A stretch of 64,000 nucleotides of DNA from Escherichia coli (GTDB lineage: Bacteria > Pseudomonadota > Gammaproteobacteria > Enterobacterales > Enterobacteriaceae): assembly GCF_024502345.1 (NCBI RefSeq), contig NZ_JALDNN010000001.1; one strand, written 5' to 3'. Under the pieces are notes generated by a model. The model worked only from the letters and a program-made list of their open reading frames with translations. It ran no database searches and was not told the origin of the DNA. Positions 5,036 to 5,070 of the stretch are shown piece after piece. The position numbers and the translations under genes were made by a program. The number at the start of each line of letters is the position of its first letter. Within the stretch, counting starts at the first letter, position 1.

Positions 5036-5070
5036 CAGTCGCTACTGACATGCCCTGTCAGTAGCGACTG
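5036..5070. promoter_or_regulatory. perfect 15-bp inverted repeat (CAGTCGCTACTGACA-TGCCC-TGTCAGTAGCGACTG), candidate operator of the downstream WYL regulator
   Basis: Palindrome read directly; about 35 bp upstream of ATG 5105, no T-tract after it so not a typical terminator. Confidence 0.5.

Follow-up and report, generated by a model that had tools for sequence, protein, structure and literature searches.

A conserved palindrome upstream of an Escherichia coli WYL regulator gene as a putative autoregulatory box in a promoter lacking a -35 element

The long inverted repeat found immediately upstream of a WYL regulator gene in the 64,000-nt stretch of Escherichia coli DNA analysed here (from now on, the window) is very probably the binding site of the regulator encoded downstream of it, as judged from sequence conservation. 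The part of the repeat that is kept upstream of homologous genes is a 19-bp core, referred to in this work as the WYL box. On balance, this core appears to be an autoregulatory box built into a promoter without a -35 element and operating in an activator mode, a reading to which we give limited confidence.

The inverted repeat and its conserved core

The original prediction described a perfect palindrome with 15-bp arms at positions 5036-5070 (CAGTCGCTACTGACA-TGCCC-TGTCAGTAGCGACTG), which is seen exactly there. The pairing is indeed perfect, but the arms are one pair longer on each side, and therefore comprise 16 bp (5035-5050 and 5056-5071, 100% complementary) around a 5-nt spacer (Table 1). 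Among the inverted repeats with a loop of up to 30 nt, this is the longest perfect one in the window, the runner-up having arms of 12 nt, and the chance expectation for 16-nt arms (~64000 x 31 / 4^16) is below 1e-3. A total of 33 nt separate the palindrome from the ATG of the regulator gene. No second copy of its core with up to two mismatches exists elsewhere in the window, and the five matches with three mismatches (1.8 expected, which corresponds to chance level) include none in a supportable promoter-like position.

Several types of element were considered for this repeat and discarded. An intrinsic terminator was ruled out on the basis of the lack of a U-tract after the stem and of any terminator call: as already noticed in the original prediction, no T-tract follows the palindrome (the stem is followed by GTAATCTCAAGG), and a terminator scan of positions 4600-6200 returned zero terminator-like sites. 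A repeated extragenic palindrome or a known structured RNA was also rejected, as the repeat is present in a single copy in the window and an Rfam search gave no match at E <= 1. The SOS box recognized by LexA has the consensus TACTG-N10-CAGTA, with the half-site CTGT. The sequence TACTG-N11-CAGTA of the palindrome is one base too long for this consensus and its half-site reads CTGA instead of CTGT, and a LexA box was consequently rejected.

Table 1. Features of the palindrome region and of the downstream cassette (positions in the window).
Feature	Position	Strand	Basis or remarks
Candidate sigma-28 (FliA)-type promoter, TAAG-N15-GCCGATAT	4994..5020	+	Conservation islands; FliA ChIP-seq geometry
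Full perfect inverted repeat, arms CCAGTCGCTACTGACA / TGTCAGTAGCGACTGG	5035..5071	.	16 nt per arm; spacer TGCCC
Conserved 19-bp core (WYL box), ACTGACA-TGCCC-TGTCAGT	5044..5062	+	Conservation upstream of homologous WYL genes
Predicted -10 hexamer, TAATCT	5072..5077	+	TAnnnT register across loci; PafBC motif match
Inferred transcription start	5083..5086	+	~7 nt past the -10 hexamer; deduced from the -10 position
Shine-Dalgarno sequence, AAGGAG	5092..5097	+	7 nt before the ATG
WYL regulator gene, 292 aa, wHTH-WYL-WCX	5105..5983	+	Pfam domains, homologues
PDC-M09A gene, 281 aa when intact	6018..9292	+	Pieces 6018-6064, 7122-7487 and 8850-9292
IS903-like (IS5 family) insertion	6065..7121	+	9-bp target duplication; ~codon 16 of M09A
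IS110-family insertion inside M09A	7488..8849	-	
PDC-M09B gene, 481 aa	9292..10737	+	PADLOC E = 1.7e-213
Third cassette gene, 840 aa, YeeR_C domain	10774..13296	+	In some relatives only; absent in L061 and L063

The core is linked to WYL genes well beyond this strain. Homologous WYL genes with 27-100% identity were drawn from representative genomes and assemblies of Mixta, Enterobacter, Hafnia, Citrobacter, Pectobacterium, Cronobacter, Shewanella, Pseudomonas, Rhodanobacter, Rivihabitans, Providencia, and others, and ACTGACA-N5-TGTCAGT, with up to two mismatches, is present in 17 of 22 of their upstream regions (250 nt), compared with a single match at the same threshold in ~257 kb of flanking DNA. 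The distance from the core to the start codon ranges from 37 to 85 nt in the homologues, and from 41 to 85 nt in the 17 just mentioned. The core precedes homologues down to ~30% identity, across genera and genomic contexts, and the genes encoded behind the regulator vary from locus to locus (PDC-M09, LeoA-like GTPases, two-gene sets of unknown function, or none), as the neighbouring genes also do.

Conservation in orthologous loci, on which the original prediction had staked its refutation, holds for the inner 19 bp, but not for the outer 9 bp of each arm. When 19 loci were anchored on the core, each half-site position was found to be conserved in 14-19 of them. G4 and C6 of the left half-site are kept in all 19 and A5 in 18, while in the right half-site G14 and C16 are kept in all 19 and T15 in 17. 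In an alignment of six enterobacterial sequences, the core stands out as a conservation island with nearly all columns invariant, the exceptions being its first base and one half-site base, each of which varies in one locus. Both in this alignment and in the 19 anchored loci, the outer 9 bp of each arm differ between homologous loci. The closest relatives are still palindromic with another sequence (arms of 14 nt in L059 and 13 nt in L004), and in L061, L063, L065 and L067 the outer arms are not palindromic. Within the spacer, positions 4-5 (CC, 5054-5055) are kept in 16-17 of the 19 loci, on the gene-proximal side only. The published WYL boxes compared in this work offer no explanation for such an oriented CC in an otherwise symmetric box.

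The association was also approached in the reverse direction, by scanning a metagenome collection with the composite pattern ACTGACA-NNN-CC-TGTCAGT-N9-TAnnnT, which holds 19 specified bases. This pattern gave 86 matches, 82 of them with at least 250 nt of downstream sequence, and in 35 of these 82 an ORF matching the WYL family profile is located directly downstream on the matched strand. The proteins encoded by these ORFs are 30-100% identical to that of the window (from 30% to 99.7% for the full-length ones). Conservation in both directions, upstream of homologues and in this reverse test, supports the proposal of the palindrome as an operator candidate, but not its BrxR-type framing.

A scan of viral contigs with the core only (ACTGACA-N5-TGTCAGT) yielded 120 loci, none of them with a family-profile WYL ORF, an uninformative result, given that the core specifies only 14 bases, an insufficient number, and that the family is seemingly absent from that collection. 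In four of the viral loci (L093, L099, L103 and L107, two of which come from one contig), the core occupies the same relative position, ~645-665, with no WYL gene nearby, and another regulator with a similar palindrome may be involved in those contigs.

Promoter architecture and the encoded regulator

A scan for sigma-70 promoters called no -35/-10 pair at the site, and the predicted -10 hexamer was located only by comparative anchoring of the 19 loci on the core. In 12 of these loci, a TAnnnT is found exactly 9 nt past the core, versus 0-1 loci at each other offset, and the three specified columns are well kept (T29 in 14/19, A30 in 14/19 and T34 in 17/19). In the window, the hexamer is preceded by TG at 5069-5070, which generates the extended -10 form TGgTAATCT. 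The majority of the loci do not have this extension, TG being carried by 6 of 23 and 0 of 9 unique contexts. No -35 hexamer exists 16-18 bp upstream of TAATCT, where the positions read ATGCCC, CATGCC or ACATGC. The left half-site cTGACA was tried as a -35 and rejected, because it is 21 bp away from the -10. Given a transcription start near 5084, as predicted from the position of the hexamer, the core box would span from about -40 to -22. As regards the Shine-Dalgarno sequence, the blocks GGAG and GGAAA are kept in the enterobacterial alignment.

A second candidate promoter, of the sigma-28 (FliA) type, is located upstream, at 24 nt from the core box and at 14 nt from the complete palindrome. 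Its blocks TTAAG and G.CGATAT, separated by a 15-nt gap, stand out as further islands of conservation in the alignment of the six enterobacterial loci (in the homologous loci of Mixta, Enterobacter, Hafnia and Citrobacter), and the geometry and sequence of the element are those of FliA ChIP-seq motifs, such as the ones of trg and ycgR. Its distance to the box varies among loci due to a 12-nt indel, and a sigma-28 match with two mismatches is not above chance within the window alone. If this promoter is active, it would originate regulator-independent transcription through the palindrome, which would then be part of the 5' UTR.

The composite motif is not restricted to WYL genes of the family. 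It precedes recA in three metagenome contigs (L201, L227 and L273) and uvrB in another one (L252), in which the gene is leaderless, with its ATG 6 nt past the -10; in some environmental contigs, the start codon is similarly found 5-7 nt past the -10. These recA and uvrB occurrences are what the promoter of a DNA-damage-type regulon would look like, although the metagenome matches do not bear independently on the spacing, because N9 was imposed by the search pattern. In six more contigs (L202, L205, L206, L226, L236 and L248) the motif precedes 320-aa HTH-WYL genes with the helix SVRTIYRD, which are actinobacterial-looking by sequence composition alone. GST-like genes and REP-associated tyrosine transposases also appear behind the motif. 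A second shared element, (A)ATGTGATATATT, has been observed between the box and the downstream gene in L222 and in the three contigs where that gene is recA.

The protein encoded behind the box is a wHTH-WYL-WCX transcription factor. Pfam matches cover HTH_DeoR/HTH_11 (residues 10-47), WYL (123-174) and WCX (209-279), and the top fold matches are all WYL regulators. Its recognition helix reads S36-E-R38-T-L-Y-R42-D-L-N, in which R38 and R42 are invariant in 28 homologues. Helices of the form SERT[LIV]YRDL[NS] are found in nearly every locus with an ACTGACA box (DERTIYRDLN in L008), while the four loci with an xRTIQRD helix exhibit altered or missing boxes: CCGACA...TGTCG in one, GATGACA...TGTCATC in another, a degenerate right half-site in L017, and none found in L016.

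Regarding its relatives, a phmmer search of the regulator against PDB sequences returned nothing, which means that it shares no significant pairwise similarity with the solved WYL regulators. The family profile matched PafBC at 4e-4 (a marginal value obtained over the WYL region only), DriD at 0.006-0.03 and BrxR_Efer at 0.33, and did not match CapW or BrxR_Acin, while BLASTP of the regulator against BrxR of E. fergusonii gave E = 3.1. An AlphaFold model (pLDDT 79.8, weak at residues 87-108) was compared by means of Foldseek, giving DriD (1e-12, TM 0.5), PafBC (2e-11), BrxR (6e-9) and CapW (3e-8). The similarity of the protein, as estimated from profiles and a predicted structure, weakly favours the activator side. 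The label of BrxR-type regulator is not supported by these BLASTP and profile values, and the experimentally defined BrxR and CapW sites differ moreover in sequence and promoter position; by sequence relationship, none of phmmer, the family profile and BLASTP places the protein in the BrxR/CapW clade.

Mode of regulation and the downstream cassette

In the model that we favour, in which the binding, the ligand, the sign of the regulation and the transcription start are all inferred, a homodimer of the regulator would bind the core ACTGACA-N5-TGTCAGT (5044-5062), with Arg38 and Arg42 probably reading the GTC/GAC triplet of each half-site. The box would be built into a promoter with a -10 but without a -35, and its proximal half-site shares exactly the register of the '-26 element' of PafBC. 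Single-stranded DNA, which signals DNA damage or phage attack, would be bound by the WYL domain, upon which the dimer would bind the box, substitute for the missing -35 contact, and recruit the sigma-70 RNA polymerase. Expression of the regulator gene would be switched on in this way and, where the locus is intact, that of the PDC-M09 genes encoded behind it as well. Activation is preferred because the -35 is missing, the PafBC/DriD register is kept across distant taxa, the box is of the GAC-N7-GTC type, and the motif occurs at recA and uvrB.

A serious alternative, although less probable than activation, is that the palindrome functions as the operator of a BrxR/CapW-like auto-repressor. According to it, the unliganded dimer would cover the -35/spacer region, at a point beyond the sigma-28-like promoter, and would block the RNA polymerase until single-stranded DNA releases it, de-repressing the regulator and PDC-M09. 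All the defence-associated WYL regulators tested so far (BrxR, CapW and the WYLs of SXT elements) are repressors, the 5-bp spacer of the inverted repeat is that of both BrxR sites, and the Acinetobacter BrxR likewise covers the -35 region, from -51 to -27. Nevertheless, the regulator shows no significant sequence similarity to BrxR or CapW, and the known repressor sites differ in sequence and keep no fixed register to the -10. The extended -10 TGgTAATCT might be active in the absence of an activator, in which case it would have to be repressed, but most loci lack this TG, so that their promoters would be poor by themselves. Regulator-independent transcription could also be provided by the conserved sigma-28-like promoter upstream. 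A long perfect palindrome at the own gene resembles a tight auto-repressor operator, and the extra palindromic base pairs average ~3.5 at autoregulatory sites versus 1.2 at other targets. Against this, occlusion requires neither a TAnnnT spacing that is strict to 1 bp across divergent loci nor the loss of the -35. The arm sequence CTACTG/CAGTAG also appears in the BrxR_Efer box, CCTACTG-N5-CAGTAGG, although with N5 instead of N11; this common hexamer was dismissed on account of that spacing and of the lack of conservation of the flanks in the family of the window.

It is highly improbable that the repeat acts mainly as a nucleic-acid hairpin. In that case, transcripts started at the sigma-28-like promoter, or reading through from the gene at 4185-4799, would carry in their 5' UTR a 16-bp stem serving as a stabiliser, a pause or a processing site, and not as a site for protein binding. 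The predicted stem is certainly very stable (-32.4 kcal/mol, z = -5.9 with respect to shuffles), and a predicted stem-loop of ~70 bp has been noted around the Acinetobacter BrxR site. However, it is followed by no U-tract and is associated with no terminator call or Rfam family, and a start near 5084 would leave the palindrome untranscribed from its own promoter. A structural role is unlikely because the core, including the spacer, is conserved in sequence and the extension of the stem is not: the non-pairing spacer is kept, and the outer arms are unpaired in the four loci mentioned above. Paired changes in the outer arms do preserve the extended palindromy in the window, L059 and L004, but such changes are possible without selection, given that template-switch correction of quasi-palindromes can yield them.

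The probability that the palindrome is a product of chance, or the remnant of a mobile-element end or of a repeated extragenic element without regulatory role, is negligible, since, even though the region is rich in IS elements and belongs to an integrative island, the repeat adjoins no IS boundary, is unique in the window, is far longer than expected by chance, and is kept with the WYL gene across unrelated genomic contexts.

The genes located behind the regulator constitute the PADLOC candidate cassette PDC-M09. They match PDC-M09A/B and not BREX models, and the locus is not a BREX system. Neither can the operon be considered an intact unit in this strain, as the first downstream gene is split by the IS903-like and IS110-family elements; the first 9 bp of its piece at 7122-7487 repeat the target duplication. 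PDC-M09B is found after the WYL gene and M09A in L001, L004, L059, L061, L063 and L071.

Some additional observations concern the same island. A 1103-aa SIR2-domain protein is encoded at 14053-17364 (+), with Dsr1 models matching only the N-terminal ~360 residues. This Dsr1-like protein falls below the NCBIfam cut-off, and its gene, with an arsC/arsB remnant as a neighbour in L001, looks like a second defence gene of the island. On the other hand, in at least 16 E. coli genomes (H4-H19, e.g. L002) the palindrome is retained but the WYL gene is kept only for roughly its initial 77 codons, with 99.4-99.8% identity to the window over 4802-5335; from there on, the sequence is that of a truncated cytochrome bd-II (appC-like) gene. 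The resulting fusion ORF, of 125 aa, is also found in the metagenome contigs L204, L259, L272 and L278.

A wider proposal, which we put forward tentatively and hold to be somewhat closer to doubtful than to probable, is that ACTGACA-N3-CC-TGTCAGT-N9-TAnnnT represents a cross-phylum class of -35-less promoters of homodimeric WYL activators, a palindromic counterpart of the PafBC '-26 element'. Promoters of this class would drive recA and uvrB in uncultured lineages, the actinobacterial-looking 320-aa HTH-WYL genes, and, in Enterobacterales, mobile defence cassettes. The E. coli protein would be in this case a positively autoregulated activator of PDC-M09 triggered by single-stranded DNA, and, in enterobacteria, a FliA (sigma-28) promoter placed above this control would tie its basal expression to motility. 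If this is true, it would be the first WYL activator dedicated to a defence cassette.

The defence-adjacent WYL regulators are currently assumed to be repressors, and the locus described here bears on how the sequence sets one and the same fold to repress or to activate. It provides a compact test case in E. coli, in which a 292-aa regulator is paired with a 19-bp box placed at a fixed distance from a -10, without a -35. If the box is activating, a mobile defence cassette would be controlled by induction and not by de-repression, and mobile elements of enterobacteria would come within the range of the PafBC/DriD mechanism; if it is repressing, it would be an ordinary auto-operator of an uncharacterised WYL subfamily. 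In addition, the derived consensus can be used as a search pattern, which recovers WYL genes and DNA-damage genes in metagenomes.

Comparison with characterised WYL systems

The PafBC promoters of Actinobacteria (RecA-NDp) show the consensus tGTCgg(N10)tA(N3)T, lack a -35, and have a '-26 element' and sigma adaptation. The sequence TGTCAG(5056-5061)-N10-TAATCT of the window agrees with this consensus in the specified positions and in the spacing. The absence of a -35, the wHTH-WYL-WCX organization, and the two recognition-helix arginines placed four residues apart are also shared, and the composite motif of the window is found before recA and uvrB in metagenomes as well. In contrast, PafB and PafC form a heterodimer-like pair that acts on a half-site without palindromic symmetry and contacts sigma through its second HTH, whereas the full palindrome of the window implies that both HTH domains are on the DNA. 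The host, E. coli, is another difference, and what the promoter precedes here is the regulator's own gene and, after it, candidate genes for defence.

DriD from Caulobacter is a homodimeric activator that binds ATACGAC-N7-GTCGTAT in the place of the -35, at a fixed distance to the -10 of promoters that have no -35. It resembles the regulator of the window, a putative homodimer, in being a homodimeric wHTH-WYL-WCX protein with a GAC-N7-GTC palindrome, and it is the best structural match to the model. The register is also the same: counted by hand from the printed oligonucleotide sequences, CAATCT, CAAGGT and CAAGCC of three DriD promoters occupy positions 16-21 from the G of the proximal GTC, as TAATCT does in the window. 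The arginines R37/R41 of DriD and R46/R50 of PafB read the guanines of the GTC triplet. The differences between both systems lie in the outer part of the half-site (ATACGAC versus nACTGAC), in the spacers, which are AT-rich in DriD and YNNCC here, in the residue Glu40 of DriD, which is Tyr41 in the window protein, and in the lack of significant pairwise similarity. Besides, DriD activates genes of the DNA-damage response, not a mobile cassette.

SiwR from M. smegmatis is another homodimeric activator, which recognizes a 19-bp imperfect palindrome between -35 and -10 at promoters that have no -35 element. The -26 region is essential, and an R38A-R42A mutant loses binding. Unlike the window, however, the triplet kept at -26 is GGA and not GTC. 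The activator DdaA from Moraxellaceae, which also controls anti-phage genes, binds the box CGWCA-N5-TGWCG, of the same GAC-N7-GTC type as that of the window. The type of box does not fix the register by itself, because DdaA binds ~50 bp upstream of the start. Neither SiwR nor DdaA has been reported at its own gene heading a defence cassette, as is the case in the window.

BrxR and CapW are also wHTH-WYL-WCX dimers that act on inverted repeats upstream of the regulator or defence operon, in association with mobile phage-defence genes. The promoter region of the regulator gene likewise carries an inverted repeat, and its short spacer, of 5 bp, coincides with that of BrxR. The BrxR_Efer site, GAAACCTACTG-AAAAA-CAGTAGGTTGC (sequence from pEFER), is just downstream of the -10; the BrxR_Acin site, ATACCGTAAA-AATAA-TTTACTGTAT, extends from -51 to -27; and the site of the E. 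coli CapW overlaps a TATAAT -10. Contrary to the box of the window, these sites do not contain GAC-N7-GTC, and their distance to the -10 is not fixed.

The features of the activator-type systems, namely a GTC/GAC triplet together with arginines in i/i+4, a fixed distance to the -10 and no -35, are all found here at the sequence level. In sequence and position, the box would thereby match those of the WYL activators (PafBC, DriD and SiwR), and not those of the repressors. The WYL box itself is of an already known kind, and the moderately surprising, and testable, twist is that its architecture, on a mobile defence cassette of E. coli, would be of the activator type.
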